A stretch of 64,000 bases of DNA, from positions 4,352,001 through 4,416,000 of the forward strand of contig CP166615.1 of NCBI GenBank assembly GCA_041937175.2, in the 5' to 3' direction. This DNA is from Limnothrix sp. BL-A-16. GTDB taxonomy: Bacteria > Cyanobacteriota > Cyanobacteriia > CACIAM-69d. The notes below the pieces were generated by a model that worked only from the letters and a program-made list of their open reading frames with translations, made no database searches and was not told the DNA's origin. Of the stretch, positions 30,138 through 63,418 are shown piece by piece (within the stretch, counting starts at the first letter, position 1; the number at the start of each line of letters is the position of its first letter). The position numbers were made by a program, and so were the translations under genes.

Positions 30138-30242
30138 ACATTTCCCGTCGTTTACAGGCTGGGTGGGATGTCAAACAGCCCTGCCGGATGGCGTTCCAGA
30201 CGAAGCGATCTAGATTGGAAATGCTGGTTGGGGAACAACACC

Positions 30243-42923: not shown

Positions 42924-43130
42924 ATGGGAAATAGCACAAAGTCCTCGAAATTTCCGATTGTTATTGAAATGGAGCCACAGGCAAACTCTGACATCGAAGA
43001 ATTGGTGAACTCCGGCAAAGGTCTCATTTGTGACAACGTGTCCGTTGCCCTAGAACAACTGAAAGCCCAAGGAATTTTGCCCGAAAGCGTCATCCCCGTA
43101 TTTGTTGTTGTTGCATCCTCCGACGACTAG
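42924..43130 (+). CDS. Small (68 aa) hypothetical protein, first gene of the PKS cluster
   Basis: ATG ORF; homologous to the C-terminal domain of 45212-46150, which supports it being a real gene. Confidence 0.75.
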   Translation: MGNSTKSSKFPIVIEMEPQANSDIEELVNSGKGLICDNVSVALEQLKAQGILPESVIPVFVVVASSDD

Positions 43131-43246
43131 TGAAGAACTGATGTGCAATCATCCCCAAAGGCCGCTGAGCTGAAGCTTGAGCTGAAGTTTTGGGGACAGA
43201 TTTCGCAAGTGTCCGATCGTCCCGTGTAAGCATCAGCACAAATTTA

Positions 43247-44971
43247 ATGATTCAGCCCGATCTGATCCCGATCCCACTGGAATTGCCGCCAGAGCAAAGA
43301 TTGCTCCCGGTTAATGACTTAAGCTTCCTGAAGAACCGAATCGTTTTGGTGTTGTACGAGGTTTCTCGGCTGACCCTCAAGTACTCCCTCAAGAATGCGA
43401 TGGGTGCAGCCAACCTCAAAGCAGAGCTGGCTCGGGATATTCGGTTCTCCATCGAAAAGCTGGGGGGATTGCTGATTAAGGTGGGTCAGCTCCTGTCGCT
43501 TCGTCTGGATCTCTTCCCCGCCGAAATTTGCCAAGAACTCTCCAAGCTTCAGGATCGATCCTATGGGTTTTCCCTGGACTATGTTCGGCAAATTATCCAA
43601 GAGGAATTAGGTCTCCCTCTGGAAAGGATATTCGTTGAGTTTGAAGAGCGGCCCTTTGCGGCTGCGTCAATCTCGCAAGTCCACAGGGCCCGAATCCCGT
43701 CCTTTCCTGGTGTGGTTGCCGTTAAGGTTCAGCGCCCAGATGTCGAAGAAAAGTTTAGCCAAGATCTACAGCTCATCCGCTTCCTGCTCTCCCTCATCAA
43801 AAAGCTGAAGCTACAGAGCTATGTGGATTGGGACAGCATCAGCCTAGAGCTGGATCAAATGATTCAGGAGGAAATTGATTATCGCTACGAAGCATCCAAT
43901 CTAGAGCAGATGGCAGCAACGCTCAGGGAACATAACATCTATGTTCCTGCTTTGATTGCTGACTACAGCACCAAAAAAGTCCTGACCACGGAATATATTC
44001 CCGGCATTTTGATGTCAGATTATATCCGCGCCGCCAGCACTGATCCCGAATATCTAGAAAAGATTCTTCGACTCAATAATATTGACCCGGAGTTGGTGGG
44101 CAAGCGTCTTTTTGAAAGTTTCTTCCGTCAAATGCTGGAAGATAACCTATTCCATGGGGACTTGCATCCTGGCAACATCATGCTGCTGCGGGATAGTCAC
44201 ATTTGCCTCATTGATTTGGGGGCGATCGGCAGTCTCGATTCCCACTTTCTGCGCTACTACCGGCGCAGTATGCAGGCCCTTGGAGAACGGGACTACGATC
44301 GAGCACTGGATTACAGTTTGATGTTGTGCGATTCCCTACCCGCAGGAGACATTGAAAACGTCAAAACGCAGCTCACCCAGTGCTATCGTCAGTGGGATGC
44401 CAAAATGAACATCCGCAGTCTTTCATACAATGAGAAGTCGATCGGCTCGATCGGTGTTCAAATTGGAACAGTCATGCGCAAGAACCGCATTTCCTCCAGT
44501 TGGCAATTGCTGCGAGTCTTCCGCACCTGGGGATTGATGGATGCTTCCTTGAACTATCTAATTCCCAACGCAGATTACATGAGTCTCGTTGGCGGATATT
44601 TTCGAGGTGCCGTTAAGCGCAGTCAGCTTCAGCTTAAGCAACTTGGCATCAATGGCATTGTGATGCAACTCACAGAAAAAGTTGCCGAACTTTCCGATCT
44701 GACAACGATCGAGCTTCGTAGTAAAGCAGTTCGCAAAAAAACAGTTGTTGATCAGAAAACCTCGTCAAAGCTCGCTGACAAAGCTAAAAAACTAATCTGG
44801 CTAGCGATCATCGTTCTGGCTTGGGTTTTCCTGCACCAACACCTCGAAATAGCCGTGAACTGGCTACCACCTAATCAATACTCGGCTTGGGCTGAAAGCA
44901 TCCCAGATCTCGCTATTGAAGTTTGGGTTGGGATCCTAATCTTCTGGGTCTACCTACTCAAAATTCTCTAG
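43247..44971 (+). CDS. AarF/UbiB/ABC1 family atypical kinase with C-terminal TM helices
   Basis: IKVGQLLS (KxGQ), AAASISQVH, VAVKVQRP, FHGDLHPGN, IDLG. Confidence 0.92.
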   Translation: MIQPDLIPIPLELPPEQRLLPVNDLSFLKNRIVLVLYEVSRLTLKYSLKNAMGAANLKAELARDIRFSIEKLGGLLIKVGQLLSLRLDLFPAEICQELSKLQDRSYGFSLDYVRQIIQEELGLPLERIFVEFEERPFAAASISQVHRARIPSFPGVVAVKVQRPDVEEKFSQDLQLIRFLLSLIKKLKLQSYVDWDSISLELDQMIQEEIDYRYEASNLEQMAATLREHNIYVPALIADYSTKKVLTTEYIPGILMSDYIRAASTDPEYLEKILRLNNIDPELVGKRLFESFFRQMLEDNLFHGDLHPGNIMLLRDSHICLIDLGAIGSLDSHFLRYYRRSMQALGERDYDRALDYSLMLCDSLPAGDIENVKTQLTQCYRQWDAKMNIRSLSYNEKSIGSIGVQIGTVMRKNRISSSWQLLRVFRTWGLMDASLNYLIPNADYMSLVGGYFRGAVKRSQLQLKQLGINGIVMQLTEKVAELSDLTTIELRSKAVRKKTVVDQKTSSKLADKAKKLIWLAIIVLAWVFLHQHLEIAVNWLPPNQYSAWAESIPDLAIEVWVGILIFWVYLLKIL

Positions 44972-45211
44972 TTTTGATGACATTTTTTCTTGGAGGTCAA
45001 TCCGATTCATGTAGAATATTAAGAAAGTCGAACATGCTTATTCGGCTATCAGGAAATATTCTAAAATTCGCGAGAGATGGTTGTTTTGTGAATTAAATTC
45101 AGGTCAGCATTAATACTTCAGTATTTAACACTCCAGTATTAATGAGCATGTCTGTTTTTATTCAATAGTTTGGTTTGGAAATGACACCAATCATCCAAGG
45201 TTCTAATCGCC

Positions 45212-46150
45212 ATGACTTCAGTACTGCATTTTGATGGTCAGTCGAATTACATCCGAATTCCCCATCAAGAGTCTCTCTCCCCCGTTAATAACTTCACCTT
45301 CGAAGCTTGGCTGAACGCTGGGCAAATTGGCGGTTACCTACGCTTATTCTCTAAATTTCCAGGCTTTGGCTTTGGCCTCATCAACGAAGCACTACTTTTT
45401 ACGGAATATTGGATTGTTGACTATGCAGCCCCCGTCGCGATCGAAGCGGGCACTTGGTATCACGTCGCCATCGTCTTCAACGCTGACAACGATGTGCTCT
45501 TCTATCTCGATGGAGAGCTAATCCAGACCATCCTAGGCGACACCCCCGCCTCCGCCACCCAAAGCCCCCTCGAAATTGGCCGCAAAGCAGAGGGCCACGG
45601 CGAATATTTCCAAGGCGATTTGACCGAAGTTCGGTTCTGGGGCACTGCTCGCACTCAAGAGCAAATCCAAGCCTATAAGTCCTATCGATTGCTCGGATCT
45701 GAGGAAAATCTATTGGGCTATTGGCCTTTAAACGAAGGCAGCGGAGATGTCATCCACGACAAGAGCACCGCTGCTAACCACGGCACTTTGCAAGGCTCCC
45801 CCATTTGGAAGAGTGCTGCACTGGAACTCCCAGAAATTCTTCCTCACATCCCGCTGCCCGCTGAGGTTCAAGAAGCCGAAGCCGCTGCCGCCGAAGCCGC
45901 TGCCGCAACCGACACCATCCCTAGCCCTGGTTCCTTCCCCATCATTGTTGAACTGGAATCCGATGAAGCAACGCCCGATCGGTGCTTCGAAGAGTTGCTG
46001 ACCAAAGGAAATGGTGTGATTTACAACGGAGTCACCCAAACCCTCGTCGCCATGCGGGAGCAAGGACAAATCACCAAAGCAACAACCCCCGTTTTTGTCA
46101 TTATTCGGCGCACTCCTGAAGCCAAGAGCCTACTGCCATTTTCTCTGTAG
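45212..46150 (+). CDS. LamG-like jellyroll (ConA/pentraxin-like) protein fused to the small cluster domain
   Basis: L.FDG...Y, FTFEAW, W.HVA, FQG.L.EVRFW..AR, GYWPLNEG.G; Ala/Glu linker; C-terminal FPIIVE...PVFVII domain. Confidence 0.82.
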   Translation: MTSVLHFDGQSNYIRIPHQESLSPVNNFTFEAWLNAGQIGGYLRLFSKFPGFGFGLINEALLFTEYWIVDYAAPVAIEAGTWYHVAIVFNADNDVLFYLDGELIQTILGDTPASATQSPLEIGRKAEGHGEYFQGDLTEVRFWGTARTQEQIQAYKSYRLLGSEENLLGYWPLNEGSGDVIHDKSTAANHGTLQGSPIWKSAALELPEILPHIPLPAEVQEAEAAAAEAAAATDTIPSPGSFPIIVELESDEATPDRCFEELLTKGNGVIYNGVTQTLVAMREQGQITKATTPVFVIIRRTPEAKSLLPFSL

Positions 46151-46316
46151 CATCCCCGAGAGCCAAGGCTAGTTGTCCAAGCCAAGGGTTGGAAAATTCA
46201 ACAACCCTGAGCCTAAGCTTCTATGCCCCTCACCGCCTCGCCTCAGAGCGTTTCAGAACGAGTTTCACAGGTCAATCAATTCTAGTTACGAGTTCTAGTT
46301 ACAAGGAGTTTGATTC

Positions 46317-47213
46317 ATGAGCAGCGGTAACTACAAAAACCTGGCACTGCAAGCAGGAGGCGTGTTAGGAACAGCCTACGTAGGGGTTGTGCAAGCCCTG
46401 AGTGAGCGCGGTCTTCTCTCCAAATTTGAGCGAGTTGCCGGGGCCTCCGCAGGAGCCATTATGGGAACCTTAATTGCCCTGAGGTTCTCGGCAGCAGAGA
46501 TCGAAGAAATTATGGTGAACCTGAACCTATCAGAGTTCACCGATCCCACCAGCCCGATTAATCTCGTCCAGAATTATGGTTACTACGCCGGGGATGTTTT
46601 CTATAAGTGGATTCAAGACATCATCGCGCGCAAACTAACAACAACCGCCACCTTTGCAGATCTCGTAGATGCTGGATTTGCCGATCTGTATATCTTCGGC
46701 ACAGACTTGACCGCTCGAGGATTGCGGGAGTTTTCCTGCCGCTCCACTCCTGACGCACAAGTTGCGGGCGCAGTGCGCGCTTCCATGTCTATTCCCTTCT
46801 TTTTCCAAGCTTGGCAATTTCCTGGTGGCATTCCCGATAACCACTACTATGTCGATGGTGGCTTGATCTTGCCCTACCCCCTGTGGACATTTGATTATCC
46901 GCCCTTCATCAGCGAAGATGGCTACAACGAAGAAACCTTGGGCGTGAGCTTAAGAACCGGCTTCAGCCCCTCCGGTCTAGAAAAAAGCTTTGACCTGAAG
47001 GAGTATTTTGAAAGCCTATTTGAGGCTGCATCCTCCATCCGAATCAGCTCTAGGAACCAAGAGCGGACGATCACCGTTGACACCTTGAATCTCTCGCCCA
47101 CTGATTTCAACATGAGCGACGAGAATAAGATGCGGCTAGTGAAAAGTGGTTATGATGCCACCGTAGAATTCTTCAAACTCAAGGATGAACTGGCAGTGCT
47201 CTCTGCTGCTTAA
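46317..47213 (+). CDS. Patatin-like phospholipase/acyl hydrolase
   Basis: AGGVLG oxyanion loop, GASAG nucleophile, ASMSIP, DGG; RBS AAGGAG. Confidence 0.92.
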   Translation: MSSGNYKNLALQAGGVLGTAYVGVVQALSERGLLSKFERVAGASAGAIMGTLIALRFSAAEIEEIMVNLNLSEFTDPTSPINLVQNYGYYAGDVFYKWIQDIIARKLTTTATFADLVDAGFADLYIFGTDLTARGLREFSCRSTPDAQVAGAVRASMSIPFFFQAWQFPGGIPDNHYYVDGGLILPYPLWTFDYPPFISEDGYNEETLGVSLRTGFSPSGLEKSFDLKEYFESLFEAASSIRISSRNQERTITVDTLNLSPTDFNMSDENKMRLVKSGYDATVEFFKLKDELAVLSAA

Positions 47214-47403
47214 GTGAGTGATGAATTCATGGGAGCAATGTCATTTCCCCATCTAAATTGGTCATGATATCGCGTTGACTAACTTGGGTATCTGTTCCCA
47301 ATCTGACAAGCATAATCAGTGCTAGCAAAGGCACTTTATGCAAAATTTTCTTAATTGGTCAGTTAGCTTCTCTCTGTCCTGCCACAAAGGGATGATTGCT
47401 CCC

Positions 47404-48678
47404 ATGAAATTTGGAATTGTCTGCCCACCTGTTCCAGGACATCTCTACGGGATGATGACCATTGGGCGGGAGCTAGAAAGGCGTGGGCACTCCGTTTACT
47501 TATTAGGAATCGGAGATGTTGAACCCTACGCTCGAAAGGGAGGGGTTGGTTTTGTTGAAATTGGAAAAGAGGAGTTTCCACCTGGAGCCTTAGACCAATA
47601 CCTCGACCTCATTCGTAATGTGACAATTTCCACAATTCGTAAGGGCGTTGCCTGGGCAGAGGTCATGTGTCAAGCCCTCTGCCGTGACGGGGCAACGGCT
47701 GCTCGTGAACTTGGTTTAGATGGTCTGTTGGTCGATCAAAGCCAAACGGAGGGAAAGACCATTTCCGACTTAACAGGGATTCCCTTCCTATCCATTTGCA
47801 ATGCTCTCAATCTGGAGGGCGATGCTTCTGGTGAGGCTCCGCCGCCCTTTGTTTCTTGGTATCCTGCACAAGGAAAAGCCCTATTTCGCCTCAGAAACCG
47901 TCTGGGCAATTGGGCTTTTTCTGCTGTTTTGAATCCCATCATCGCCACCACTAATAAGCTCAGAAAAGCTCACAGTTTGCCGTTACTTCAAAATTGGGAA
48001 AATTGTATTTCGCCCTTGGGTGTCATTAGTAATTTTCCATCGAAGCTAGATTTTTCCAGGGGCTTGAATCAGCGTCCCATTTTTTATACGGGGCCCTACC
48101 TGGATGAGCGGCCTAATGATGTGGCCTTTGATTGGAGCCTGTTAGATGGACGGCCTTTGGTCTATGCATCCATGGGCACGTTGCACACAGCTAAAAAGGA
48201 GATTTTGAGCGCCATTGTGGCTGCCTGCTCCACATTGCCTGTGCAGTTGGTTCTGAGTTTGGGGCAATGGACTTTGGAACAAGCTGATCAGTCTTTTCCT
48301 GCTGGCACGATCGCCGTACCCTATGCGCCTCAGCTTGCTCTGCTCCGGCGAGCATCCTTGGCAATCACGCATGGGGGTGCGAATACGGTTTTGGAAGCGC
48401 TTTCTTTTGGCTGTCCCTTGATTACGATTCCGCTGGCTAGCGATCAGCCTGCTGTTTCTGCTCGTGTCACTTGGGCGGGTGCAGGGACAACCATCGCTCA
48501 AAAGCAAGTGGATGCAGTACGGCTACGTCAATTGATTGTTCAGGTTTTGGAGAACCCCGATTTCAAAAATTGTGCTGGAGTTATGAAGACAGAAATTGAG
48601 AATTCCGGAGGTGTGAAAGCAGCGGTCAATGTAATTGAATCAGTCTTTAGTTCTGCTACTATTTCTGCTGCCCGTTAG
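47404..48678 (+). CDS. GT1 (MGT/CrtX-like) glycosyltransferase
   Basis: PPVPGH, LVYASMGT, APQLALL, ITHGGANT.LE, DQP. Confidence 0.9.
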   Translation: MKFGIVCPPVPGHLYGMMTIGRELERRGHSVYLLGIGDVEPYARKGGVGFVEIGKEEFPPGALDQYLDLIRNVTISTIRKGVAWAEVMCQALCRDGATAARELGLDGLLVDQSQTEGKTISDLTGIPFLSICNALNLEGDASGEAPPPFVSWYPAQGKALFRLRNRLGNWAFSAVLNPIIATTNKLRKAHSLPLLQNWENCISPLGVISNFPSKLDFSRGLNQRPIFYTGPYLDERPNDVAFDWSLLDGRPLVYASMGTLHTAKKEILSAIVAACSTLPVQLVLSLGQWTLEQADQSFPAGTIAVPYAPQLALLRRASLAITHGGANTVLEALSFGCPLITIPLASDQPAVSARVTWAGAGTTIAQKQVDAVRLRQLIVQVLENPDFKNCAGVMKTEIENSGGVKAAVNVIESVFSSATISAAR

Positions 48679-49271: not shown

Positions 49272-49589
49272 ATGCCAGAAGCCATGCGAACTCCCATTCA
49301 GGTTGGATCAGAAATCAAGCGAATCATCACATTTGAGGTTAACTCAATTGGTGAAGCCATGCCGGTTGTGATTTATAAAAAGAAGGTCGTTGACCCTGCT
49401 GCCCAACCAGGTGCGATCGAGGTTGCTCCAGTTTCTGCTAAGGGAATTTTGGAAAAGATTGTCGATTCGCAAATTCAGGCTGCCAGTGAGTTCAAAGTTC
49501 TCAATGAGCAATCAGGGGAGAAGTGGCTTAAAGACCTGGCCAAGAACATCTCACTCGCCATTGTTAAAGGCGGAGATGCACTTGCTTAA
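49272..49589 (+). CDS. Small hypothetical protein (105 aa)
   Basis: ATG ORF with GAGG RBS in AT-rich DNA, followed by a terminator; PVVIYKK...WLKDL pattern. Confidence 0.65.
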   Translation: MPEAMRTPIQVGSEIKRIITFEVNSIGEAMPVVIYKKKVVDPAAQPGAIEVAPVSAKGILEKIVDSQIQAASEFKVLNEQSGEKWLKDLAKNISLAIVKGGDALA

Positions 49590-49611
49590 ATGGCGAGTTT
49601 TTCAGTCGGAC

Positions 49612-49650
49612 TAAACAAGGATGCTGGCTTGTTTGGCATCCTTGTTTAAT
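49612..49650 (+). terminator. Hairpin/terminator after the 105-aa gene
   Basis: TAAACAAGGATGC...GCATCCTTGTTTA 13-bp perfect stem. Confidence 0.65.
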
Positions 49651-49929: not shown

Positions 49930-51228
49930 ATGTTTTCGTCTTCAGAATTTCCTGCTTCAGCGCAAGATAAAATTCAATACATCAGTTTGGCAACTTGCAA
50001 TGGCATTATCCAATGCATTTTTGCGCTAGATAGTTGTCTTAATGAGGAGCTTTTTTTCAAGAGCTTTGACTTGGTTTTAGAGTCAGAAGTGATTCTGCAA
50101 TGCCAGTGGGTAAACAATAGCGTATCACCCTACTGGTCGTTACCTGAAGAAAAACACAAAGACCGATTTAAACTACTTCAAGTGGTTGATGTGCAACAGG
50201 CGGTTGAAGAGTTTATATCTTGTTCGATCGATCCAACAACAGATAGTTTAGTTCAATTGAGAATTTTTCGACATCAAGACGAAAACGCGTTTCAAGATAC
50301 GTTTTGCCTCAAGATGTCACACATTGTTTCTGATCTCAGTGGACTCCGGTTTTTTCTTCAGTCCCTTGCTGAAACTTACGGGGTACTGCAAACCGGCCAA
50401 GAATGTGCCCCGAGTCCTGTGACCATTCGGCGCGATGGATGGCAAGTTTTTAGCAAGCTACCTCCAAAAAAAAGATGGCAATTGCTGCAAAAGGGTAAGA
50501 AAAACTTCTTAAAGCCAGGGCAATGGAAAATCCCATTTGATAACTATAATTACGAGGCTCCGACTTATACCACCTACCAATTGGGTCAGGAACAAATTGA
50601 AAGGCTGACTGAGTATGCCAAAGGGCGCGGGGCTACCTTGAATCAAGTTATGTTGACAGGTTTTTTGCGTGCCCTGCATCGATTCACGGACGCAGAACCC
50701 GATTCGTCGCTTCCGATTATCAACACCCTCGACCTTCGCCATTATCTCCGGCATGGGGATCTGCCTAAAATTTGCAATCTTTCGGTTCCGTTAGTTTCCA
50801 ACATTGATTTCAATCGAAAAGACTCTTTTGAAGACACATTATCTGGAATCAAATCAGATCTCATGAGTCAAAAAAGAACAATGCCTGGCATTTTGCCAGC
50901 AGTTTCGATGGAAGTTTTATTTCTTGCTCCGTTTTCGTGGATTAGTTGGTTATTTAATCAGGCATTTTCTCAGTTTGCTGAATCAGGAATTTGCACACCC
51001 TTATTTTCAGATGGTGGCAATGCTGACATCAGTATTCCAGGGCATCAAGTGGTTTATGCCTACGGTTTGGGGCCCATTGCTTATGCTCCAGCTTTTATGA
51101 TGACGGCTTCTACCTTTAGAAGTACTGTCACGTTTGCTGTGGGCTTCTGCGAATCTTCCATTAGTCGCAGTAATATGAACAAAATATTTGACTTGATGGC
51201 GGAGGAGTTTGCAAGCTGCACTGTCTGA
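49930..51228 (+). CDS. Stand-alone condensation-domain-like acyltransferase (HxxxD fold)
   Basis: SHIVSDLSG (HHxxxDG-like), ATLNQVML, LDLRHYL, CNLS. Confidence 0.75.
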   Translation: MFSSSEFPASAQDKIQYISLATCNGIIQCIFALDSCLNEELFFKSFDLVLESEVILQCQWVNNSVSPYWSLPEEKHKDRFKLLQVVDVQQAVEEFISCSIDPTTDSLVQLRIFRHQDENAFQDTFCLKMSHIVSDLSGLRFFLQSLAETYGVLQTGQECAPSPVTIRRDGWQVFSKLPPKKRWQLLQKGKKNFLKPGQWKIPFDNYNYEAPTYTTYQLGQEQIERLTEYAKGRGATLNQVMLTGFLRALHRFTDAEPDSSLPIINTLDLRHYLRHGDLPKICNLSVPLVSNIDFNRKDSFEDTLSGIKSDLMSQKRTMPGILPAVSMEVLFLAPFSWISWLFNQAFSQFAESGICTPLFSDGGNADISIPGHQVVYAYGLGPIAYAPAFMMTASTFRSTVTFAVGFCESSISRSNMNKIFDLMAEEFASCTV

Positions 51229-52326: not shown

Positions 52327-52380
52327 GAGAAATTTAAAAGCGCAAGTTGCAAGCTCAGTTGAAGACTAGGAGTTGAAGCC

Positions 52381-54688: not shown

Positions 54689-54772
54689 GTTGGCAGCCTC
54701 ATCCCAATCGCCCTAATCGCTTCAGTAATGACTGCCTCACGAAAAATTAAAGCTGATTTGAGATACCCCACC

Positions 54773-57700
54773 ATGACTCAAGATATCGCTGTAATTGGTT
54801 TGGCTGGTCGCTTTCCTGGGGCGGCGGATATTGATGAATTTTGGGGCAATTTGGCGGCAGGGGTGAACTCGATCGGGGAAATTCCGCCCGATCGCTGGGA
54901 TCACCAAGCCTACCGCGAACAAACGGGCAATAAATGGGGCGGTTTCCTAAAGGATTGGCGATCGTTTGATGCGGGATTTTTTGCCATTTCCCCCCGAGAA
55001 GCCAAGTACATGGATCCTCAACAGCGGTTGCTATTGGAGGTGGCTTGGCATTGCGTGGAAGAAGCCGGCCTGTCCTTAGCCTCGCTCCGTCAGCAGCCAA
55101 CAGGGGTCTATCTGGGTGCGATGACCATGGACTATTGGCAAGTCACGACGGATCCTCAGGTGGAAATTGATGGGTTTTCGGGGCTAGGCAGCTACAGTTG
55201 CATTCTGTCGAATCGGCTGTCCCATGTGTTGGGTCTCAGCGGCCCGAGCTTGACCCTGGACACGGCCTGCTCTTCGTCTTTGGTGGCCATCCATTTGGCT
55301 CGGCAGGCGTTGCTATCGGGTGAATGTGAATTGGCCTTTGCGGGTGGGGTGACCCTCAACCATCGTCCTTGGAAGCATCTGTCATTTTCCCGCGCAAGGA
55401 TGCTGAGTCCAACGGGTCAATGCCGCACGTTTGATGCTCAGGCCGATGGCTATGTGCCCGGCGAAGGCTGTGGGGTGCTGTTGCTTCAGCCCCTGGAACG
55501 GGCGATCGCCCAGAATCGCCGGATCTTTGGGGTGATTCGGGGCAGCGCCGTGAACCATTCGGCGGTGGGTGAGTCGATCACAGCCCCCAACGTGGGACGA
55601 CAGGCCCGACTGTTGAAGGCGGCCTACGCCGATGCCCAAGTGGATCCGGCCACGGTGACCTATGTGGAAGCCCATGGCACGGGAACTTCCCTGGGTGACC
55701 CGATCGAGATGGAGGCCCTTTCCCAGGCCTTCCGCACCACGGCCAAGGCGATCGGCTATTGCCAGGTGGGTTCCGTGAAAACCAACATCGGCCATTTGGA
55801 AGCGGCGGCGGGAATTGCCGGGGTGATCAAGGTCTTGATGATGTTGCAGCATCGCCAGATTCCCGCCAGCTTGAACTTAACGACTCCCAACCCGCTCATC
55901 GACTTCACCACCTCTCCCTTTGTGCCAGCGGTGGCGCTTGGTTCCTGGGAACCGGCGGCGGTGGATTTGCCGTTGCGAGCGGGGGTGAGTTCCTTCGGCT
56001 TTGGGGGCAGCAATGCCCACTTGGTGTTGGAAGAGCCGCCCCGGTTGCCCGTTGTGGCCGAGGGCGCTGGATCGCCGTTGGCGTTGGCGACAGGGGATCC
56101 GGGCCAAGGGGCCCCGGAGATGGGCGATCGGGCAACGGCCGTGATTCCCTTCCTGTTGTCTGCCAAATCAGCACGTAGCTTGGCCGCCTTGGTGGCTCAG
56201 TGGGGCCAGGAAGGGGCGCAACGGGTGGCCGCAGCCGACTTGGGGACGATCGCGGCGAACCTGGCCCTGGGGCGCGAGAGTTTGCCTTGGCGATTTGGTT
56301 GTTTGGCCAGCAGTTGGGCCGATGTGCAGCGGGCGTTGGCGCAATTTGAGCTGCCGTCTCAACCCGTGGCGGCGACGGTGGAAACGCCTTCGGAGGCGCG
56401 ATCGACCTTGGGCCGGCTGGTGCAAGATCCCGAGGCGTTCAAGGCCCTTTGGGCATCGGTGGCGTTGCCGGAGGCCGATTGGGAATCGGTGTTGCAGGTG
56501 GCCCGCACCCTGTGGCGACGGCAAATGACCTTTACGCGCTTTGTGGAAACCTGGCGGCAACCGTTGGCGCAGGCGGGCATTGACCTTGATTCAGTGTTGC
56601 AAGCTCCATTGCAATCAGAATCCTCATCCCCATTGCGATCGGCGGTACTGCAATCGGACTCACTGCGATCGAACGCACCTCACCCAGAGCATCGAATTTT
56701 GGTGTTTGTGGCAATTCGCAGCAGCTTGGCTCGCCTGTGCCAAAAGTGGGATTTGACCGATCGCTATCCCACGGGGTCGGCGGCCTTGGCGGAATTGGCG
56801 CGGGCCTTCACGGTGGGGGTGCTGGATCCGGCCATGGATTGGCCGGTTTTGCTGTCGGGATTGCTGCCCGATCGCCCGCGATCGGTGGCAGAGTTGCCCG
56901 AGGCGCTGGCTCCCGAGGATGGGGGAAGTTCGGTGCAGTCGGCCCTGGCGGCCTGGCTGGCGGGCCGCCCGGTGGATTGGTCAGCCCATTTCCCGGCCAC
57001 CTATCCCAAATTGTCCCTGCCGCGCTATCCCTTCGATCGCCAGTTGTATTGGCTCTTTCCCAAAACATCCGAGGGCGATCGGCCGGCTCCGTTGCCCGCT
57101 GCCACGGCGGCCCGTGAGGTGCTGCCCTCCTCCGGGGCCTCGTCGGAGCGCTGGGAACAGGTGTTTCCCGAAACAGATTTGGTGCTGCGATCGCACTTTT
57201 TAAATGGGCGCTGGATTTTGCCCGCCGCCAGCTTCATTGGCTTGGCCTGGGATGCGGTGACCCGATCGCTGGGGCGATCGCCCGGATTGCTAACAGAGAT
57301 TACCTTGCACCAGGCCGTGGCCTTGGGGGTGGGGGATGCGGAGGCCGTGACCTTGGGGGCCCAGGTGGAGTTGCCGAATCGGGTTCAGGTTTGGCAGCGC
57401 GATCGCCTGATTTTGAGCGCCACCTTTACGGATTCATCCTCAGAGTTGCCCCTCGATCAAGTGGCCGGGCGATCGCCGGATTCCCACGCGGTGGGCCGTG
57501 ATGGGGTGGGCGAGATTTCGGGAACGGCCATTTATGCCGCCTTGCGATCGCGCGGCTATCAGTATGGAAGAGCCTTGCAGGTGATCCATCAGGCCCAAAT
57601 CACCGATGAAGTAGCTACCTTCCAACTGCAAGCCCCCAATCGCACCGCCTTCTTGGATGGGATTTTGCAAGCGGCCGTGTATTTACACCAGCAATGGTTT

Positions 57701-60700
57701 GCGGAACGGGGCGGCGATCCTCGAGATTTTGTTGTGCCGGGGCAAGTGGTGGGCTGTTGGTGGGGATCCCAGTTGCAAGCCCAGTGGGAATCGTCATCCG
57801 CTTCAGCAATTTCCCCCACAGCATCGCCCGATCGATCCGCCGATCTGGAGACTGGCGAGCCTTCATCCTGGGTCACCGTGCGGTTTGAGCGCCAACAATG
57901 CCGGGCCCAGGCCACCGAAAGCCAGTTTTCGGCGATCGCGATCGGGACGGATGGCCGCCCCCTGGCCATGATTCGGGAGTTAACCCTGGCGGCGGCCCCC
58001 TTGCTTGCGCCGGAGGTGTCCTACTTTGAAACCGACTGGACTGTTTTGCCCGCCGCCACTGCATCCCCAACTCAGGCCACTGCCGCGCCGACGATCATCT
58101 TTGCCCAGGGGGCTGCTTGGGGCTTGGCCTTACGCCAACGGCTGCGATCGCAGGGAATTGAGGCTCAGTTGTGCCTAGCCGGTTCAACCTTTGAGGTTTT
58201 GGGCGATCGGGTTTGCCAGTGGGATTGGACAGATCCAGACCAAGTGCGCCAGGGCCTGACGCATCTGTTGGCTCCCGAGCAATTCCGGGCGATCGCAGGG
58301 GCCGACGCGATCGACTCGCCTCTTTCTCCAACCCTGGTCTATTGGGTCACGGCTCCCCCGGCGGCGGGGTCAGGTCATGGACTCCGGGGCGATCGGGATT
58401 GGGTCACCCAAGCCGAAGCCGATTTGAACCAGGGCGTGCGTGGTTGTTTTCTGTTCTTGCAGCGGTGGGCGAAAGTGCGCCCCGCCGATCCGCTCCAGCT
58501 TTTGGCCGTGACCTTTGATGCCCAAGCTGTGACCCCGAGCGATCGGGTTTTGGGGTTTGCCACGGCGGGGATTGATGCCTTGGGGCGCACGGTGGCCCTG
58601 GAGTTGCCCCAAATCCGCCTGAAATCCCTGGACTTGGCGTTGGGACTAACCGTTGGGGAAGCCAGCGCCATGATCGCGGCGGAAGCGGCGACCCCTTGGG
58701 AGCATGATCGCGTGGCCTATCGCGGGGGCGATCGCTATGGGGCCGAGTTGCGGGCAGTGGCCCCCGGATCTGCGCCTCCCTTGCCGGTTTCAGTCCTGGA
58801 GCCGGGATCTTGCATTTTAATCACCGGTGGGAGTGGGGCCTTGGCCGCAGAGGTGGCCGAGGCGATCGCGCTGCAAACGGCCGTTCATTTTCTGCTGGTG
58901 GGTCGATCACCCCGCCGGGCCCAAACTGACCAACTGATCGCCCTGCTGGAATCCTTGGGATCCACGGCGGATTATTTGCAAGTAGACCTGTGCCAAGAAG
59001 CCGACCTCGATCGACTCACAGAGACCCTGAAAACCACCCACCGCGCCATTCACGGCGTGATTCATACGGCTGGGCAATTAGACGATCGGCTGTTCCATGC
59101 CCAAACCCTCGCCTCCCTCGATCGGCTGATTGCTCCCAAGTTCCTTGGGGCCTTGCGCTTGGAACAACGGTTGCAGGATCAGCCCGTGGCCTTTTGGTTG
59201 GGATTTTCCTCAATCACCGTGGCGGCCGGCAACCCTGGACAGGCGAACTACGTGGTGGCGAATCGGCTGCTGGAAGCCTTTTGTGCTTACCGCGATCGCC
59301 ATTGGCCCGGACGCGCCGGGGCGATTCAGTGGGGCCTGTGGCGATCGCGCGGCATGGGAGCCACCGACATGCTGGCCGAGCGGTTCCAGCGATCGGGCAT
59401 GGAACCCTTTAGCGCGGCAGCCGGTCGGTTTGCCTTCCTTGATGTGCTGACCAGCGATCGCCCTCAGCCCGTCCTGGTCACCGGTAAAGGCACGGACGCA
59501 ACCATCTTTGAGCGCTTCTCCCGATCGCGCCCCGCTCCGAATGTGGCCCCAGCCTTGCCTGCTCCCCTGACCCCGGCGGCGATCGCCCCATCTGCTCCGC
59601 CGCCCCAGCCCACCCCCTCGATCGCCACCATCGAGCAAGAATTGGCCGCCCTGGTTGCCCGCACCCTGAACACCGATCCCCAATCCGTGCCCCGTCAGGA
59701 AGGGTTTTTCAGCCTGGGTCTGGAGTCCTTGATGATTGAGGAAATTGTGGCAACCCTCGAAAAGCAATATTCCGGCCTGCGGCCCACCGTCCTGTTTGAC
59801 TATCCGAACATCAAAGTGCTGGCCACCCACCTGGCCCAGCTAACCGCGCCCGCTGGATCCACCACCGCGCCGGCCACTCCATCTCCGGCGGCCCCCTCTC
59901 CATTGGCCTCAGTTCCTAGCCCGGTCGCGCCAGCCCCAACCCAGGTCACCCGATCGCCCAATCCTGTACCCTTCCTGGGGCCGCAAGCTTTGGCCGCCAA
60001 AGCTCCCGATCTCAAGACTTCCGATATTCAAGCTCCTGAGGTGAAGGCCCCTGAGGCGAAGGTTCCTGACACCGGAGCCACCAACACTCAGGCCCCCATC
60101 CCCCAAACCCAGAGCCTGGAGTTGCCCGATCGGCAGCGGCCCCCCGGTGGCTATGACATCGCGATTATTGGGATCGATGGTTGCTATCCCCAGTCTCCTG
60201 ACCTGGAGACCTTTTGGCAAAACCTGTATCAAGGGCGATCGTGCGTCACGGAAGTGCCCGCCAACCGTTGGGATTACCAGCCGTACTTTGCGGAAACCAA
60301 ACAGCCCAATCGCACCTATGGCAAGTGGGGCGGCTTTATCCCGGGGGTTGAAGAATTTGACCCGCTGTTTTTTAACATTGCGCCCAAGGAAGCCAAGCAA
60401 ATTGACCCCCAAGCGCGGCTGTTTCTCCAGTCGGTTTGGCACACGATGGAAAATGCGGGCTATGGCAGCCGTCAATCGCGCCGGGGAGAACGGGTTGGCC
60501 TCTTTGTTGGGGCCATGTGGCACGACTATTCCCACGTGGCGCGGGATTTAAGTTGGAGTGCCGATCAGCCCAGTGGCGCTGGGGCCTTGTTTTGGATTAT
60601 TGCCAACCGGGTTTCCCATTTCCTGGATTTCACGGGGCCCAGTTTGGCGATCGATACCGCTTGTTCTTCGTCCCTGACGGCGATTCACTTGGCTTGCCAG

Positions 60701-63418
60701 AGTTTGCTGGCCGGCGACTGCACGATGGCGGTGGCCGGGGGCGTGAGCCTCACCTTGCACCCATTCCGCTATCTCTACCTCAGTCAATGGGGCTTTTTAT
60801 CCCGCGATGGCCGTTGCCGCAGTTTTGGGGAGGGAGGCGATGGCTATGTGCCGGGCGAGGGCGTGGGGGCCGTGTTGCTCAAGCCCTTGGCCCAGGCCCG
60901 GGCAGATGGTGACTTCATTTGGGGCGTAATCCGGGGCAGTGGCATTAACCACGGCGGCCGGGTGAATGGCTTTACGGTTCCCAGCGGGCCGGCCCAAACG
61001 GAGTCGATCGAGCGATCGCTGGCGGCGGCGGGCATCCAGTTTGGAGACTTGCAGTATGTGGAATGTCACGGCACGGGCACGGCCCTGGGCGATCCGATCG
61101 AAGTGGGTGGGCTGGCCACCGTGGCCCAACGGCAGGGATATCAGGGCGATCAAATTCCCCTGGGTTCCGTCAAGTCCAACATTGGGCATTTGGAAGCCGC
61201 GTCGGGTATCGCGGGCCTAACCAAGGTTTTGCTGGCCATGCGCCATGACACCATCCCCGGCACGCTGCATTGCAACCCGCCGAATCCCAATATTGCCTTT
61301 TCGGAACTGCCTTTTCGGGTTCTGGCCCAAGCGCAACCTTGGCCCAAGGGCGATCGCCCCCGGTTTTCCTGCGTGAATAGCTTTGGAGCCGGTGGATCCA
61401 ATGCCCATTTAATTGTGGAAGATTGGCCAACCCTACAGCCAAAACCCAGCAGCGCCGGCCCCTGGTTAATTGTCCTGAGTGCCCGCACGGTCAATCAACT
61501 CACGCAACAGGCCAGCCAACTGCATCGCCATCTGCGCACCGAGCGGCCGAACCTGGATGATGTGGCTTGGACGCTGCAAGGGGGGCGCGAACCCCTCGCG
61601 GAACGCCTGGCCCTGGTGGCCGATCGGCTGGACACCCTGTTAGAGCAGCTTGCAACGTTTCGCCAAGGCCAGCTCCCCGCTGGCGGATGGCGAGGCCAGG
61701 TGCTGGCGGGGGCCGACCCCATTCCCGCGCCCGTCCTGCCCGAATCTGGGATGCCCACGGCTGCCACGCTGGCATTGCTCGCCCAGGCCTGGACTCAGGG
61801 GGCTGAAATTGACTGGCAACGGCTGCGATCGCCCGGGAGTCAACGGATTCCCCTGCCGGGCTATCCCTTTGCCAAGGATGCCTATTGGCTCACCAGCGCC
61901 GCGCCGCCGCCGTTCCCCCCGCAAGGGTCATCCCCAGTTCAAGCCCAAGTTCAAGCCCAAACTGCGTCTCCAACCAACTCGCAGCCCATGCCCCCAGCGG
62001 CAGCGCCTTCGCCTACTGGGCGATCGACCGTTTCCGGCGATGACGGGGCGATCGCGATTATTGGCATGGGCTGCCACTTTCCCAACGCCCACAACCCCGC
62101 CGAATTTTGGGCCAACCTGCTAGCGGGCCGCAGCAGCATTGAGGAATTGCCGCCCGATTTTTGGCATCGGCCCGCATCATCGGAAATGTCATCGTTTTCT
62201 GACTTGCAAGGCGCGATCGATCCCAACGCCACCGGCACGCCCCCGCGCTGGGCTGGCCGGATCACCCCCCGTTCCCTTTCTCAGTTTTCGGATCTCTGGC
62301 CCGATGGTATGACCCAGACTTTGGATCCGGGCAGCGCGGAACTGCTCAGTATTTTTGCGGAGACGCTCCAGGATGCTGGCTATGGCGTGGGAGATTGGCG
62401 GGGCGAGTCCGTGGGTTTATTTGTGAGCACAGGGGTCACTTTTGCTCCCGGTTTGACCGCCCAATTGTTGGGTTGGCGCGGCCCCAGTCTGGTATTGAAC
62501 GCTACGGATTCCGCATCCCTTGGGGCCTTGCATCTCGCCTGTCAAAGCCTGCGCAGCGGAGAATGCCACGTTGCCATGGTGGCCGGTTTGCATCTGCTGG
62601 AATCGGGCCAGCTCCCTGCCAGTTGGGCGGCGGCCAAGCTTCTGTCCCTTGACGGCCAACATCGGGCCTTTGATGCAGCGGCCAAGGGCGCGGTGCTCGG
62701 AGAAGGAGGCGGGGCCCTGTTGCTCCGGCCCCTGAGCCAGGCGATCGCGGAGGGCGATCGAATCTATGCGGTCATTGAAAGTTCTGCGATCGCCCAAGAT
62801 AGCCCTCCCTTTGGACTGCCCCTGCCCACCGTCACCGGCCAGCAACGGGTGATTGAACAGGCTTGGGCCCGATCGGGTCTGGATCCAGCCGCCTTGGGCT
62901 ACCTCGAAGCGCACGGTTTAGCCACCCCCCTAAGCGACCCCGTGGAACTGAAGGCCCTTTCCCAGGCTATTCGCCAACACACCGCCGCTACCCAGTTCTG
63001 TGCGATCGGCTGCGTGAAAAGCAATATTGGCCACCTGCTCAGCGCGGCGGGTATTGCCAGCCTGATCAAAACCGCCCTGATTTTGCATCACGGCCAAATT
63101 CCACCCACCTTGCACTGTGACCAACCTCACCCGCGCCTGAACCTGGAACAATCTCCATTCTTTTTGGCGCGTCAGGCTCAGCCCTGGCCATCTCAGCACC
63201 CCATCCGTCGAGCAGCGGTTAGCTCCTTTGGCCTGGATGGCAGCAATAGCCACGCGATCCTGCGGGACTTTTCCCCCATGGCCGCCATGGCTTCCGAATT
63301 CCGAACTCCCCAGGAATCCCAGTCCCGATCGGCCCCAGTGGCCGCCGGGCGATCGGCCGCCTCGCCTTCCTATCCTGCCCTGCTGAGTTTTCAGGAACTA
63401 ACCGTCAGCAAGGCTTGA
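54773..63418 (+). CDS. AT-less (trans-AT) type I polyketide synthase: KS-DH-KR-ACP-KS-KS*(Cys>Asp)
   Basis: KS1 and KS2 have DTACSSS/HGTGT/GHL; DH H(FLNG...P) and LDG..Q; KR GGSGALA/LDD/YVVAN; ACP LGLESL; KS3 NATDSAS/HGLAT; no GHSxG AT, ER or TE. Start 54773 or 54728. Confidence 0.92.
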   Translation: MTQDIAVIGLAGRFPGAADIDEFWGNLAAGVNSIGEIPPDRWDHQAYREQTGNKWGGFLKDWRSFDAGFFAISPREAKYMDPQQRLLLEVAWHCVEEAGLSLASLRQQPTGVYLGAMTMDYWQVTTDPQVEIDGFSGLGSYSCILSNRLSHVLGLSGPSLTLDTACSSSLVAIHLARQALLSGECELAFAGGVTLNHRPWKHLSFSRARMLSPTGQCRTFDAQADGYVPGEGCGVLLLQPLERAIAQNRRIFGVIRGSAVNHSAVGESITAPNVGRQARLLKAAYADAQVDPATVTYVEAHGTGTSLGDPIEMEALSQAFRTTAKAIGYCQVGSVKTNIGHLEAAAGIAGVIKVLMMLQHRQIPASLNLTTPNPLIDFTTSPFVPAVALGSWEPAAVDLPLRAGVSSFGFGGSNAHLVLEEPPRLPVVAEGAGSPLALATGDPGQGAPEMGDRATAVIPFLLSAKSARSLAALVAQWGQEGAQRVAAADLGTIAANLALGRESLPWRFGCLASSWADVQRALAQFELPSQPVAATVETPSEARSTLGRLVQDPEAFKALWASVALPEADWESVLQVARTLWRRQMTFTRFVETWRQPLAQAGIDLDSVLQAPLQSESSSPLRSAVLQSDSLRSNAPHPEHRILVFVAIRSSLARLCQKWDLTDRYPTGSAALAELARAFTVGVLDPAMDWPVLLSGLLPDRPRSVAELPEALAPEDGGSSVQSALAAWLAGRPVDWSAHFPATYPKLSLPRYPFDRQLYWLFPKTSEGDRPAPLPAATAAREVLPSSGASSERWEQVFPETDLVLRSHFLNGRWILPAASFIGLAWDAVTRSLGRSPGLLTEITLHQAVALGVGDAEAVTLGAQVELPNRVQVWQRDRLILSATFTDSSSELPLDQVAGRSPDSHAVGRDGVGEISGTAIYAALRSRGYQYGRALQVIHQAQITDEVATFQLQAPNRTAFLDGILQAAVYLHQQWFAERGGDPRDFVVPGQVVGCWWGSQLQAQWESSSASAISPTASPDRSADLETGEPSSWVTVRFERQQCRAQATESQFSAIAIGTDGRPLAMIRELTLAAAPLLAPEVSYFETDWTVLPAATASPTQATAAPTIIFAQGAAWGLALRQRLRSQGIEAQLCLAGSTFEVLGDRVCQWDWTDPDQVRQGLTHLLAPEQFRAIAGADAIDSPLSPTLVYWVTAPPAAGSGHGLRGDRDWVTQAEADLNQGVRGCFLFLQRWAKVRPADPLQLLAVTFDAQAVTPSDRVLGFATAGIDALGRTVALELPQIRLKSLDLALGLTVGEASAMIAAEAATPWEHDRVAYRGGDRYGAELRAVAPGSAPPLPVSVLEPGSCILITGGSGALAAEVAEAIALQTAVHFLLVGRSPRRAQTDQLIALLESLGSTADYLQVDLCQEADLDRLTETLKTTHRAIHGVIHTAGQLDDRLFHAQTLASLDRLIAPKFLGALRLEQRLQDQPVAFWLGFSSITVAAGNPGQANYVVANRLLEAFCAYRDRHWPGRAGAIQWGLWRSRGMGATDMLAERFQRSGMEPFSAAAGRFAFLDVLTSDRPQPVLVTGKGTDATIFERFSRSRPAPNVAPALPAPLTPAAIAPSAPPPQPTPSIATIEQELAALVARTLNTDPQSVPRQEGFFSLGLESLMIEEIVATLEKQYSGLRPTVLFDYPNIKVLATHLAQLTAPAGSTTAPATPSPAAPSPLASVPSPVAPAPTQVTRSPNPVPFLGPQALAAKAPDLKTSDIQAPEVKAPEAKVPDTGATNTQAPIPQTQSLELPDRQRPPGGYDIAIIGIDGCYPQSPDLETFWQNLYQGRSCVTEVPANRWDYQPYFAETKQPNRTYGKWGGFIPGVEEFDPLFFNIAPKEAKQIDPQARLFLQSVWHTMENAGYGSRQSRRGERVGLFVGAMWHDYSHVARDLSWSADQPSGAGALFWIIANRVSHFLDFTGPSLAIDTACSSSLTAIHLACQSLLAGDCTMAVAGGVSLTLHPFRYLYLSQWGFLSRDGRCRSFGEGGDGYVPGEGVGAVLLKPLAQARADGDFIWGVIRGSGINHGGRVNGFTVPSGPAQTESIERSLAAAGIQFGDLQYVECHGTGTALGDPIEVGGLATVAQRQGYQGDQIPLGSVKSNIGHLEAASGIAGLTKVLLAMRHDTIPGTLHCNPPNPNIAFSELPFRVLAQAQPWPKGDRPRFSCVNSFGAGGSNAHLIVEDWPTLQPKPSSAGPWLIVLSARTVNQLTQQASQLHRHLRTERPNLDDVAWTLQGGREPLAERLALVADRLDTLLEQLATFRQGQLPAGGWRGQVLAGADPIPAPVLPESGMPTAATLALLAQAWTQGAEIDWQRLRSPGSQRIPLPGYPFAKDAYWLTSAAPPPFPPQGSSPVQAQVQAQTASPTNSQPMPPAAAPSPTGRSTVSGDDGAIAIIGMGCHFPNAHNPAEFWANLLAGRSSIEELPPDFWHRPASSEMSSFSDLQGAIDPNATGTPPRWAGRITPRSLSQFSDLWPDGMTQTLDPGSAELLSIFAETLQDAGYGVGDWRGESVGLFVSTGVTFAPGLTAQLLGWRGPSLVLNATDSASLGALHLACQSLRSGECHVAMVAGLHLLESGQLPASWAAAKLLSLDGQHRAFDAAAKGAVLGEGGGALLLRPLSQAIAEGDRIYAVIESSAIAQDSPPFGLPLPTVTGQQRVIEQAWARSGLDPAALGYLEAHGLATPLSDPVELKALSQAIRQHTAATQFCAIGCVKSNIGHLLSAAGIASLIKTALILHHGQIPPTLHCDQPHPRLNLEQSPFFLARQAQPWPSQHPIRRAAVSSFGLDGSNSHAILRDFSPMAAMASEFRTPQESQSRSAPVAAGRSAASPSYPALLSFQELTVSKA

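Follow-up and report, generated by a model that had tools for sequence, protein, structure and literature searches.

The question raised by the 64,000-nucleotide stretch of the Limnothrix sp. BL-A-16 genome analyzed here (contig CP166615.1, G000:C1:4352001-4416000, where G000 denotes this genome; hereafter the window) is what is produced by a run of polyketide synthase (PKS) and accessory genes at positions 42924..63418, and what the accessory genes contribute. An earlier note on this DNA had described eleven co-oriented genes there, encoding among others two small proteins, an ABC1/UbiB-type kinase, a LamG fusion protein, a patatin, a glycosyltransferase (GT) and a PKS without acyltransferase (AT) domains. 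It had read them as a compact, possibly iterative and undescribed trans-AT pathway to a glycosylated polyketide lipid. All eleven open reading frames (ORFs) were found on the + strand as placed by that note, and their families were borne out by comparisons with Pfam, NCBIfam and PDB, from which the assignments below are taken. We consider it probable that they open an orphan trans-AT polyketide cluster of about 70 kb with a conserved accessory set that handles the product. What is reported below on gene content, domain order, co-occurrence and selection is observation, and the roles assigned to the genes are proposals.

The window holds the first ~20 kb of the cluster, and the remainder runs past its end. 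All genes beyond it lie on the + strand: after a spacer follow PKS2 (2048 aa), PKS3 (3068 aa), PKS4 (9600 aa) and three genes for FkbM-family methyltransferases, so that the whole set comprises 17 genes (four PKS genes and 13 others). The spacer between PKS1 and PKS2 is a non-coding, A+T-rich segment of 1.2 kb, which covers 63419..64000 and continues to window-equivalent position 64651 (L001:5419-6651); it is conserved in the congener G002, and PKS2 starts at window-equivalent 64652. Upstream, the cluster is bordered by an array of clustered regularly interspaced short palindromic repeats (CRISPR; 39303-42165) and lepA.

The PKS domains were determined by scanning the four proteins, 17,612 aa in total, as 48 overlapping tiles of 700 aa against Pfam. 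Together they contain 12 ketosynthase (KS), 12 acyl carrier protein (ACP) and five C-methyltransferase (MT) domains and a terminal thioesterase (TE), and none of the 48 tiles matched the AT (PF00698), adenylation, condensation or HMG-CoA-synthase families. PKS1 (54728..63418, + strand, 2896 aa) lacks an AT domain and has the order KS1-DH-KR-ACP-KS2-KS3, where DH is dehydratase and KR ketoreductase. Outside the window, PKS2 has the order DH-DH-KR-MT-ACP-ACP-ER (ER, enoylreductase), PKS3 the order KS-ACP-KS-KR-ACP-KS-DH, and PKS4 the order KR-MT-ACP-KS-KR-MT-ACP-KS-MT-ACP-KS-DH-KR-MT-ACP-KS-KR-ACP-KS-KR-ACP-KS-ACP-TE. The KS domains are flanked by RhiE-like and CurL-like linkers. No loading module was found in the four proteins, and PKS1 opens directly with a KS.

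The missing AT activity is encoded within the window. A free-standing FabD-type AT (51454..52326, + strand) matched TIGR00128 with 307.5 bits against a cut-off of 260.9 and carries the motifs GHSLGE and GAFHS. It is followed by a second AT (52381..53370, + strand), for which the best solved relative is PksD, the AT homologue of the bacillaene system (8avz, E 2.1e-49; the next best reached 1.8e-26). We take PksD to be an acyl-hydrolase, and the second AT is predicted to be of that type. An Sfp-type phosphopantetheinyl transferase (PPTase; 53939..54688, + strand; PF01648, 47.9 bits) directly precedes PKS1. These three discrete enzymes are assigned to serve the four AT-less PKS proteins. Since AT-less modules and a free-standing malonyl-type AT occur in one cluster, together with the PksD-like AT, the assignment of the earlier note to the trans-AT systems held. 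Heterocyst-glycolipid or mycobacterial-type cis-AT pathways were also considered and rejected, as there are no integrated ATs and no fatty acyl-AMP ligase (FAAL).

The compact, possibly iterative character proposed for the line did not hold. A compact AT-less PKS making a small glycolipid had in its favor that only one PKS gene is visible within the window. Three further PKS genes follow directly and bring the line to 12 KS and 12 ACP, arranged as colinear modules that end in a TE; this refutes it, and such a pathway is now hardly credible. In its four proteins and 12 KS, the line is like the characterized cyanobacterial lines with which it had been contrasted, and it is classified here as a pure, large and modular trans-AT PKS, neither compact nor iterative.

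The catalytic Cys/His/His residues are kept in 11 of the 12 KS domains, which suggests up to 11 working modules. The exception is KS3 of PKS1 (62039..63346, + strand), in which the catalytic Cys is replaced by Asp (NATDSAS) and HGTGT by HGLAT, whereas its counterparts in related clusters of Nostoc (G043) and Microcoleus (G041) retain DSACSSS and HGTGT. The lines of these two genera have 13 KS, all with the Cys. In alignments with them, two segments are missing from the Limnothrix line: one of about 610 aa behind KS2, where Nostoc has a KR-like region, and a further one of about 1,240 aa that comprises a KR-like region and a KS. KS2 is thereby followed directly by the Cys-less KS3 and, past the spacer, by the DH-DH-KR-MT-ACP-ACP-ER series of PKS2. 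The spacer, which separates KS3 from the PKS2 DH and divides the assembly line, coincides in position with the ~1,800 aa that are extra in the Nostoc and Microcoleus lines. The Limnothrix line can be described as a natural module-deletion variant with 11 active KS compared to 13, and its product would be two extensions shorter.

The earlier note had named lack of co-occurrence of the accessory genes with the PKS elsewhere as an outcome that would refute it; the genes for the kinase, the two small proteins, the LamG protein and the patatin were, however, found together with the PKS in further genomes. For the ABC1 protein, close relatives were found in only four genome records, one of Limnothrix (97% identity), two of Microcoleus and one of Nostoc (65–66%). 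In the congener G002 the entire locus is syntenic at 88–94% nucleotide identity, while in a second congener, G001, the DUF6200 gene, the acyltransferase and the LamG-DUF6200 gene were not found. In Nostoc and Microcoleus, 16–17 genes of the set are present with 47–73% identity, one FkbM gene not being found in Microcoleus. The related genomes compared are not independent of one another.

The three genera differ in gene order and orientation. All cluster genes of Limnothrix point the same way; the Microcoleus accessory operon is convergent with the end of the PKS; in Nostoc the DUF6200-ABC1 pair is divergent from the small gene orf105 at one end, and LamG-patatin-GT is convergent at the other. 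A further layout was observed on the metagenome contig L083, where DUF6200-ABC1 lies beside a PKS1 homologue. Throughout Nostoc, Microcoleus and L083 the DUF6200 orthologue adjoins ABC1, and in all three genera the PKS operon begins with orf105. The ratio of nonsynonymous to synonymous substitution rates (dN/dS) between G000 and G002 was 0.05–0.44 for all 17 genes, all of which are under purifying selection between these two genomes. The set recurs in three gene orders and at these dN/dS values, and therefore the accessory genes belong to the cluster, as a conserved part of this cluster family. RNA-library contigs from three studies covered the accessory genes and orf105 at 95–100% likeness, with one run reaching each of the 30 bins in 42500-62400; cover of the intergenic bin 48476-49139 by the RNA-library contigs was nil or close to nil, which is evidence neither way.

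The accessory set is centered on three genes. The small DUF6200 protein (42924..43130, + strand) has 68 aa from the ATG at 42924, in an ORF that opens at a GTG at 42915 (71 aa), and matched PF19702 with 29.5 bits at a cut-off of 26.9. The ABC1/UbiB-family kinase-like ATPase (43190..44971, + strand, 593 aa; PF03109, 207.8 bits) retains all the kinase-like motifs looked for, namely KxGQ, AAAS, VAVKV, DLHPGN and IDLG, and its C-terminal end, inspected by eye, appears hydrophobic and membrane-helix-like. Its closest solved structures are 7cy2 and 5yjz (E ~5e-30). The third gene, orf105 (49272..49589, + strand), heads the PKS operon; its product has 105 aa, or more probably 101 aa from the second Met, belongs to no Pfam family, and drew only eight relatives from 5.8 billion proteins. 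By profile alignment orf105 appears to be a remote relative of DUF6312: hhalign gave a probability of 96.2% (E 2.2e-9, 97 columns) compared to 0.5% for a DUF6200 control. A DUF6312 profile built from metagenome sequences found the orf105 orthologues of Nostoc (E 4.6e-4) and Microcoleus (E 4.5e-6), and in a six-frame search of G000 orf105 was its sole match. A role of orf105 as an ACP was rejected, as it has no PP-binding match and is related to DUF6312.

Outside this cluster family DUF6200 is rare in the genomes sampled, and the same combination recurs. G000 has only two DUF6200 matches, the small gene and the tail of the LamG protein, both in the cluster and none near its four other ABC1 genes. 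Among 40 relatives DUF6200 was found in G002 only, and among 400 other cyanobacterial genomes sampled it was strong in three, G192, G303 and G372. The Pfam model of DUF6312 (PF19831) matched exactly these three genomes in the sample of 401 and misses G000. In all three, DUF6200 stands beside an ABC1 gene (33–39% identical), glycosyltransferases and PKS or nonribosomal peptide synthetase (NRPS) genes of different kinds; one of these clusters has an HMG-CoA-synthase cassette and one an NRPS module. LamG-repeat proteins are encoded at the loci of G192 and G372, and DUF6200-tagged class-3 lipases at those of G303 and G372. The six PKS-linked ABC1 proteins form one clade with support 100/100, apart from the four other ABC1 genes of G000, in trees with these paralogues as the only outgroup. 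A second locus in G303 (G303:C1:2645830-2647127; L042, L051) has two short frames matching DUF6200 and one partial match to DUF6312, with an internal TAG in one DUF6200 match and no PKS within ~15 kb, and may be a decayed copy.

An alignment of the PKS-linked ABC1 clade was used as query in a metagenome scan, and the best 80 of 207 relatives, chosen by score and not at random, were taken into account. As the flanks of these loci are short, the counts are lower bounds. DUF6200 was present at 39 of the 80 loci, DUF6312 at 40 and both at 32; the DUF6200 ORF mostly lies within a few hundred bases of ABC1, often with a small DUF6312 ORF between them. Where at least 4 kb were available on both sides (16 loci), DUF6200 was observed in 12, DUF6312 in ten, both in nine, neither in three and a KS in seven. 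All metagenome ABC1 proteins fell on the cluster side of the tree. Recurrent neighbors at the 80 loci included PKS genes (16), type II thioesterases (9), ABC-ATPase-GAF proteins (9) and Lipase_3-DUF6200 proteins (8), and no LamG protein was found there by phmmer with the LamG domain. A protein of about 725 aa without a Pfam family lies beside ABC1, DUF6200 and DUF6312 at 13 of the 80 loci (e.g., L101:1576-3750) and could be a further component of the system. Five loci (L098, L106, L138, L145 and L153) each carry two full-length ABC1 ORFs of this clade, which fall into two separate sub-clades. ABC1, DUF6200 and DUF6312/orf105 can accordingly be recognized as a conserved trio that recurs widely in metagenomes and forms the core of the accessory set.

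Both small domains also occur as C-terminal extensions of larger proteins. In the window, this is the case for the LamG-DUF6200 protein (45212..46150, + strand, 312 aa), with a concanavalin-like Laminin_G_3 domain at aa 8-153, a DUF6200 tag at aa ~238-304 and, by eye, no N-terminal signal peptide. The tail scored 22.8 bits, under the cut-off of 26.9, but could be aligned from end to end with 15 further DUF6200 sequences; orthologues end in the same tag behind two or three LamG domains, some of them also having a jacalin domain. The sole PDB match of the protein was pappalysin-2 (E 6.8e-4). A DUF6200 profile run against 1.84 billion representative proteins yielded 656 matches at E<=1e-3, of which 156 reached E<=1e-10; the majority are 70–110 aa long. 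In the larger proteins scanned the domain was C-terminal in 13 of 13 cases, preceded by Lipase_3 in four, LamG in five (once with jacalin), a beta-trefoil-like or other domain in two and no known family in two. DUF6312 likewise forms the C-terminal end of an 8-LamG protein and of a single-LamG protein in G372. The two domains are therefore read as C-terminal tags on proteins of the same loci, both on LamG-repeat proteins and DUF6200 also on class-3 lipases.

For DUF6200, from a 104-sequence alignment, a beta-alpha-alpha-beta model with two strands only was obtained, at a predicted local distance difference test (pLDDT) of 81, and Foldseek gave no PDB match at E<=0.001. In a VIA-align wide search the best Z was 3.7, with repeated rows at Z 2.5–3.6 from the beta-alpha-beta units of 4-oxalocrotonate tautomerases, a likeness that would reflect no more than a common arrangement. 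Such a two-strand unit would need a partner to complete its sheet. The model of orf105 was poor (pLDDT 61.5), and no usable Atlas match was obtained for it.

The remaining genes of the set encode a lipase and putative tailoring enzymes. A patatin-like lipase (46317..47213, + strand; PF01734, 101.5 bits) is 65–73% identical in Nostoc and Microcoleus. Patatin-like phospholipases are characterized by a Ser-Asp dyad within a GxSxG nucleophile motif and a DGG motif; both are present here, as GASAG at 42 (Ser 44) and DGG (Asp 180), and the nearest solved structures are VipD, PlpD and ExoU. The adjacent GT1-family glycosyltransferase (47338..48678, + strand; Pfam UDPGT and EryCIII-like_C) has OleD, OleI, YjiC and CalG among its solved relatives, which are macrolide or natural-product GTs, and is placed in the GT1/UDPGT superfamily closest to these enzymes. 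Behind orf105 lies a stand-alone condensation/WS-DGAT/PapA5-like acyltransferase (49930..51228, + strand, 432 aa; PF00668, 34.9 bits, cut-off 30.6). The catalytic motif of that superfamily is HHxxxDG; here it reads SHxxSD at His131, with the second His and the Asp retained and the first His replaced by Ser, and it is invariant in 10 of 10 relatives. Only nine relatives were found, one of them named WS/DGAT domain protein, and a PDB sequence search returned no solved relative at E<=0.001. Protein look-ups for orf105 and for this enzyme gave only unnamed, 'hypothetical' or 'WS/DGAT domain' relatives. Within the protein look-ups and family comparisons made here, no match to a characterized cluster came to light.

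Taken together, these genes would act as follows. The PKS would build a reduced chain by 11 extensions with five C-methyl branches, to be released by the terminal TE. GT1 would add a sugar, the donor being probably a common one because no sugar-pathway genes are present, the three FkbM enzymes would O-methylate the product, and the SHxxSD acyltransferase would O-acylate it. Glycosyl-, acyl- and methyl-transfer genes are indeed present, as the earlier note had held for the first two, while the glycolipid product and the 'scaffold' role that it added stay at the level of proposals. The apparently membrane-anchored ABC1 ATPase would form a complex with DUF6200 and DUF6312 that serves as a platform, to which cargo carrying the same domains as tags would be recruited, here the LamG-DUF6200 protein and elsewhere tagged lipases, with the untagged patatin acting alongside. 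At a membrane or lipid surface, platform and cargo may bind the hydrophobic, glycosylated polyketide, remodel it or keep it sequestered, so that the producer would be protected and the product stored or trafficked. A role in product handling or self-protection is suggested by two facts: the conserved set includes no exporter, and there is a precedent in MABP-1 (Rv3197), an ATPase of the ABC1 family that binds macrolides and mediates resistance (PMC6208485). Of the same superfamily is the macrolide-binding ATPase MSMEG_1954 (PMC8696161); the two are the best solved relatives of the cluster ABC1.

Our confidence differs between the parts of this proposal. While a conserved set that handles the product is probable, the specific mechanism, in which an ABC1 complex with two small proteins recruits tagged cargo and handles the polyketide, is tentative. 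A wider version is rather unlikely, namely that ABC1, DUF6200 and DUF6312 constitute an undescribed and widespread three-protein membrane machine, a bacterial counterpart of the lipid bodies controlled by ABC1K kinases that would be dedicated to specialized metabolites. In it, tagged proteins, such as lipases and arrays of lectin-like LamG domains, would dock by mimicking the small subunits, hydrophobic polyketide or lipid products would be coated, remodeled or sequestered, and a glycosylated and acylated polyketide of Limnothrix, Nostoc and Microcoleus would be stored there.

Several results weigh against the proposal. The trio is not confined to PKS clusters: a KS was observed at 12 of the 80 metagenome loci, again a lower bound. 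The ABC1 trees had only paralogues of this genome as outgroup, and the relation of orf105 to DUF6312 is remote, with no Pfam match at E<=0.01 and a profile E of 1e-3 in G000. The ABC1 protein scored 257 bits with the UbiB model TIGR01982 (cut-off 487.55) and 124.1 bits with the MABP-1 model NF050082 (cut-off 800), and is assigned to the ABC1 superfamily only, not to either equivalog; GT1 scored 128.3 bits with the macrolide GT model TIGR01426 (cut-off 260) and 74.6 bits with the OleI model (cut-off 700). MABP-1 is described as having no transmembrane regions (PMC6208485), which differs from the apparently anchored ABC1 protein of the cluster. The cluster patatin carries neither a DUF6200 nor a DUF6312 tag, and DUF6200 has no invariant Ser, Thr or Tyr, which speaks against a role as kinase substrate and is silent on binding. 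No exporter and no sugar-pathway gene was found in the conserved cluster set, the glycosylated and acylated product class is deduced from family membership, and links from genes to compounds are drawn here from sequence. The RNA-library contigs are compatible with expression and are no proof of transcription.

The predicted complex of the LamG-tail tag with free DUF6200 was rated 'weak support', with a score of 0.47 against 0.01 for the best control. At least 85% of contacts were shared between runs, and the pLDDT of the partner was 64 or higher. In calibration, 116 of the 157 pairs with solved structures reached the mark, as did 2 of the 215 mismatched ones, and only 18 of the 157 and both mismatches lay at or below 0.60. 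A low pass of this kind would more often be wrong than right unless the complex is likely beforehand.

The same observations can be read in other ways. Self-resistance alone would have ABC1 bind or modify the cell's own macrolide as MABP-1 does and GT1 inactivate the product in the manner of OleI or OleD, the lipase and lectin-like proteins being peripheral. The ABC1 match to the MABP-1 model (E 6.5e-36) and to solved MABP-1-type structures fits this reading, as do the GT1 matches to OleI self-immunity and macrolide-inactivating GT models and to OleD/OleI structures, and so does the lack of an exporter in the conserved set. However, both proteins score far under the curated cut-offs, a decorated sugar that stays on the product would agree no less well with the presence of three FkbM methyltransferases next to the GT, and the small proteins, the lectin and lipase tags and the trio loci without a visible PKS are left unexplained, so that we judge this reading unlikely. 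ABC1K proteins have been reported to regulate plastoglobule enzymes, and with KxGQ, the catalytic Lys, DLHPGN and DLG intact, the cluster ABC1 might turn the pathway on or off by phosphorylating proteins or lipids, the small proteins being its substrates or regulators. An ABC1 kinase of Nostoc punctiforme has also been proposed to be droplet-associated (PMC7660261). Such a regulatory module is still less likely, as no shared invariant Ser, Thr or Tyr was identified in the DUF6200 or orf105 family and the tags sit on lectin-like and lipase proteins instead of on the PKS or on regulators.

The accessory genes might also be an independent lectin/lipase system that is merely carried along on PKS islands, such as a set of secreted or contact toxins for which DUF6200 and DUF6312 are export signals. 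Lectin-like domains, patatins and class-3 lipases are common in secreted effectors, VipD, PlpD and ExoU are the nearest solved patatins, the C-terminal tags resemble export signals, and HlyD, AcrB and ABC-ATPase genes were present at 5, 4 and 9 of the 80 metagenome loci, respectively. Yet the linkage to one PKS family survives three rearrangements over three genera, the trio stands beside four different PKS clusters, and orf105 heads the PKS operon in each of the three genera. No signal peptides were seen by eye, the conserved cyanobacterial set contains no secretion genes, and a domain that only signals export would not be expected to occur as a protein by itself; this reading is very improbable. 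An accessory set that handles the polyketide remains the reading we prefer.

Comparison with known systems places the PKS itself among a known type, of which it is classified as a new member, the novelty resting on the accessory system. The cyanobacterial lines for nosperin, tolytoxin/luminaolide, phormidolide, swinholide and cusperin are large multimodular AT-less PKSs with a discrete AT or acyl-hydrolase, and the present line shares the large multimodular AT-less PKS, with a discrete AT and a PksD-like AT. Unlike these, it showed neither an NRPS module nor a beta-branching cassette with HMG-CoA synthase nor an O-methyltransferase domain in the 48 PKS tiles and 13 other genes, and compared by these general features the ABC1/DUF6200/DUF6312/LamG/patatin set is an addition. 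Mycobacterial phthiocerol dimycocerosate (PDIM) and phenolic glycolipid are made by a PKS with the acyltransferase PapA5, glycosyltransferases and O-methyltransferases. Similarly, a PapA5/WS-DGAT-like acyltransferase, a GT and several methyltransferases stand here beside a reducing, C-methylating PKS, which by analogy suggests an acylated, glycosylated and O-methylated polyketide lipid. In contrast to those cis-AT systems, the present one is trans-AT, no FAAL loading enzyme and no MmpL/Drr exporter were seen, and the PapA_C match of the acyltransferase is weak (E 7.5e-4, under the cut-off).

For the accessory proteins the nearest parallels are partial. MbtH-like proteins of NRPS clusters have about 70 aa, occur free-standing and fused, and travel with biosynthetic clusters; DUF6200 shares the size, the free and fused occurrence and the cluster linkage, but has no sequence or fold relation to them, and its partners are apparently ABC1 and tagged lectins or lipases instead of a synthase. 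The ABC1K kinases of plastoglobules and lipid droplets work at neutral-lipid surfaces with lipases and structural coat proteins, whereas here the ABC1 protein belongs to a clade apart from the genome's four other ABC1s, and no fibrillin-type protein is present. For MABP-1, no small-protein partners are mentioned in the passages on it in PMC6208485.

An orphan trans-AT PKS cluster of Limnothrix sp. CACIAM 69d and P13C2 was reported in PMC6256058 (Lima et al. 2018) and proposed as a candidate for the uncharacterized 'limnothrixin', a name that occurs in two papers of the literature searched, neither listed with a structure. It is of the same genus and is trans-AT, and the domain types in its legend (ACP, AT, C, DH, ER, KR, KS, MT and TE) are those found here; compared by domain types and not gene by gene, it is likely the present locus. 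To this extent the cluster is not undescribed, as the earlier note had called it. In the trans-AT and polyketide passages of that paper there is no discussion of a kinase, small proteins, LamG, patatin or GT, and in the literature searched, which excludes subscription journals and supplements, no paper was found for DUF6200, DUF6312, DUF6208, PF19702 or PF19831, none that joins cyanobacteria, trans-AT, glycosyltransferase and patatin, and none on a Microcoleus trans-AT PKS. Measured against that literature, the trio is new here, as are the use of its small domains as tags and the repeated occurrence of both next to PKS clusters.

Orphan trans-AT clusters are common, and a helper set that is kept through three rearrangements, with its trio beside unrelated PKS clusters and on many environmental contigs, is uncommon. 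If the trio does handle the product, this would explain how membrane-active polyketides are coped with in the absence of an encoded exporter, provide a new genome-mining marker for lipid-like products, and give a role to two domains of unknown function. The Limnothrix line, set against those of Nostoc and Microcoleus, lends itself directly to testing how chain length evolves in trans-AT lines. As the cluster is a published candidate for an unidentified Limnothrix toxin, its true size and gene set matter for linking it to a compound.

Some features of the surroundings and composition were also noted. Directly after the last FkbM gene, outside the window, lies a dispersed repeat of ~180 nt (L007:4565-4747; G000:C1:4464565-4464747), of which more than 30 copies with 71–91% identity are scattered over the contigs of G001; it may mark the downstream edge of the island. 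In G001, lepA and the downstream flank are located on separate small contigs, as seen in an empty-site comparison. The GC content at third codon positions (GC3) was 0.66–0.70 in the four PKS genes and 0.41–0.57 in the accessory, AT, PPTase and FkbM genes, compared to 0.69 in lepA and a genome GC content of 55%; the Nostoc cluster showed a weaker form of the same contrast, which may reflect either a mosaic origin or amino-acid bias.

The CRISPR array between lepA and the DUF6200 gene consists of 40 identical 36-nt repeats with spacers of ~34–39 nt. No cas family was matched by the scanned ORFs of the window, and the same repeat occurs at the same place in G002. Upstream of lepA, a 1198-aa signaling protein with two GAF, HisKA, HATPase, two receiver and adenylate/guanylate cyclase domains is encoded on the − strand (33041-36637), adjoined at 30168-33020 by the gene for a 950-aa LRR-TPR-CHAT protein.

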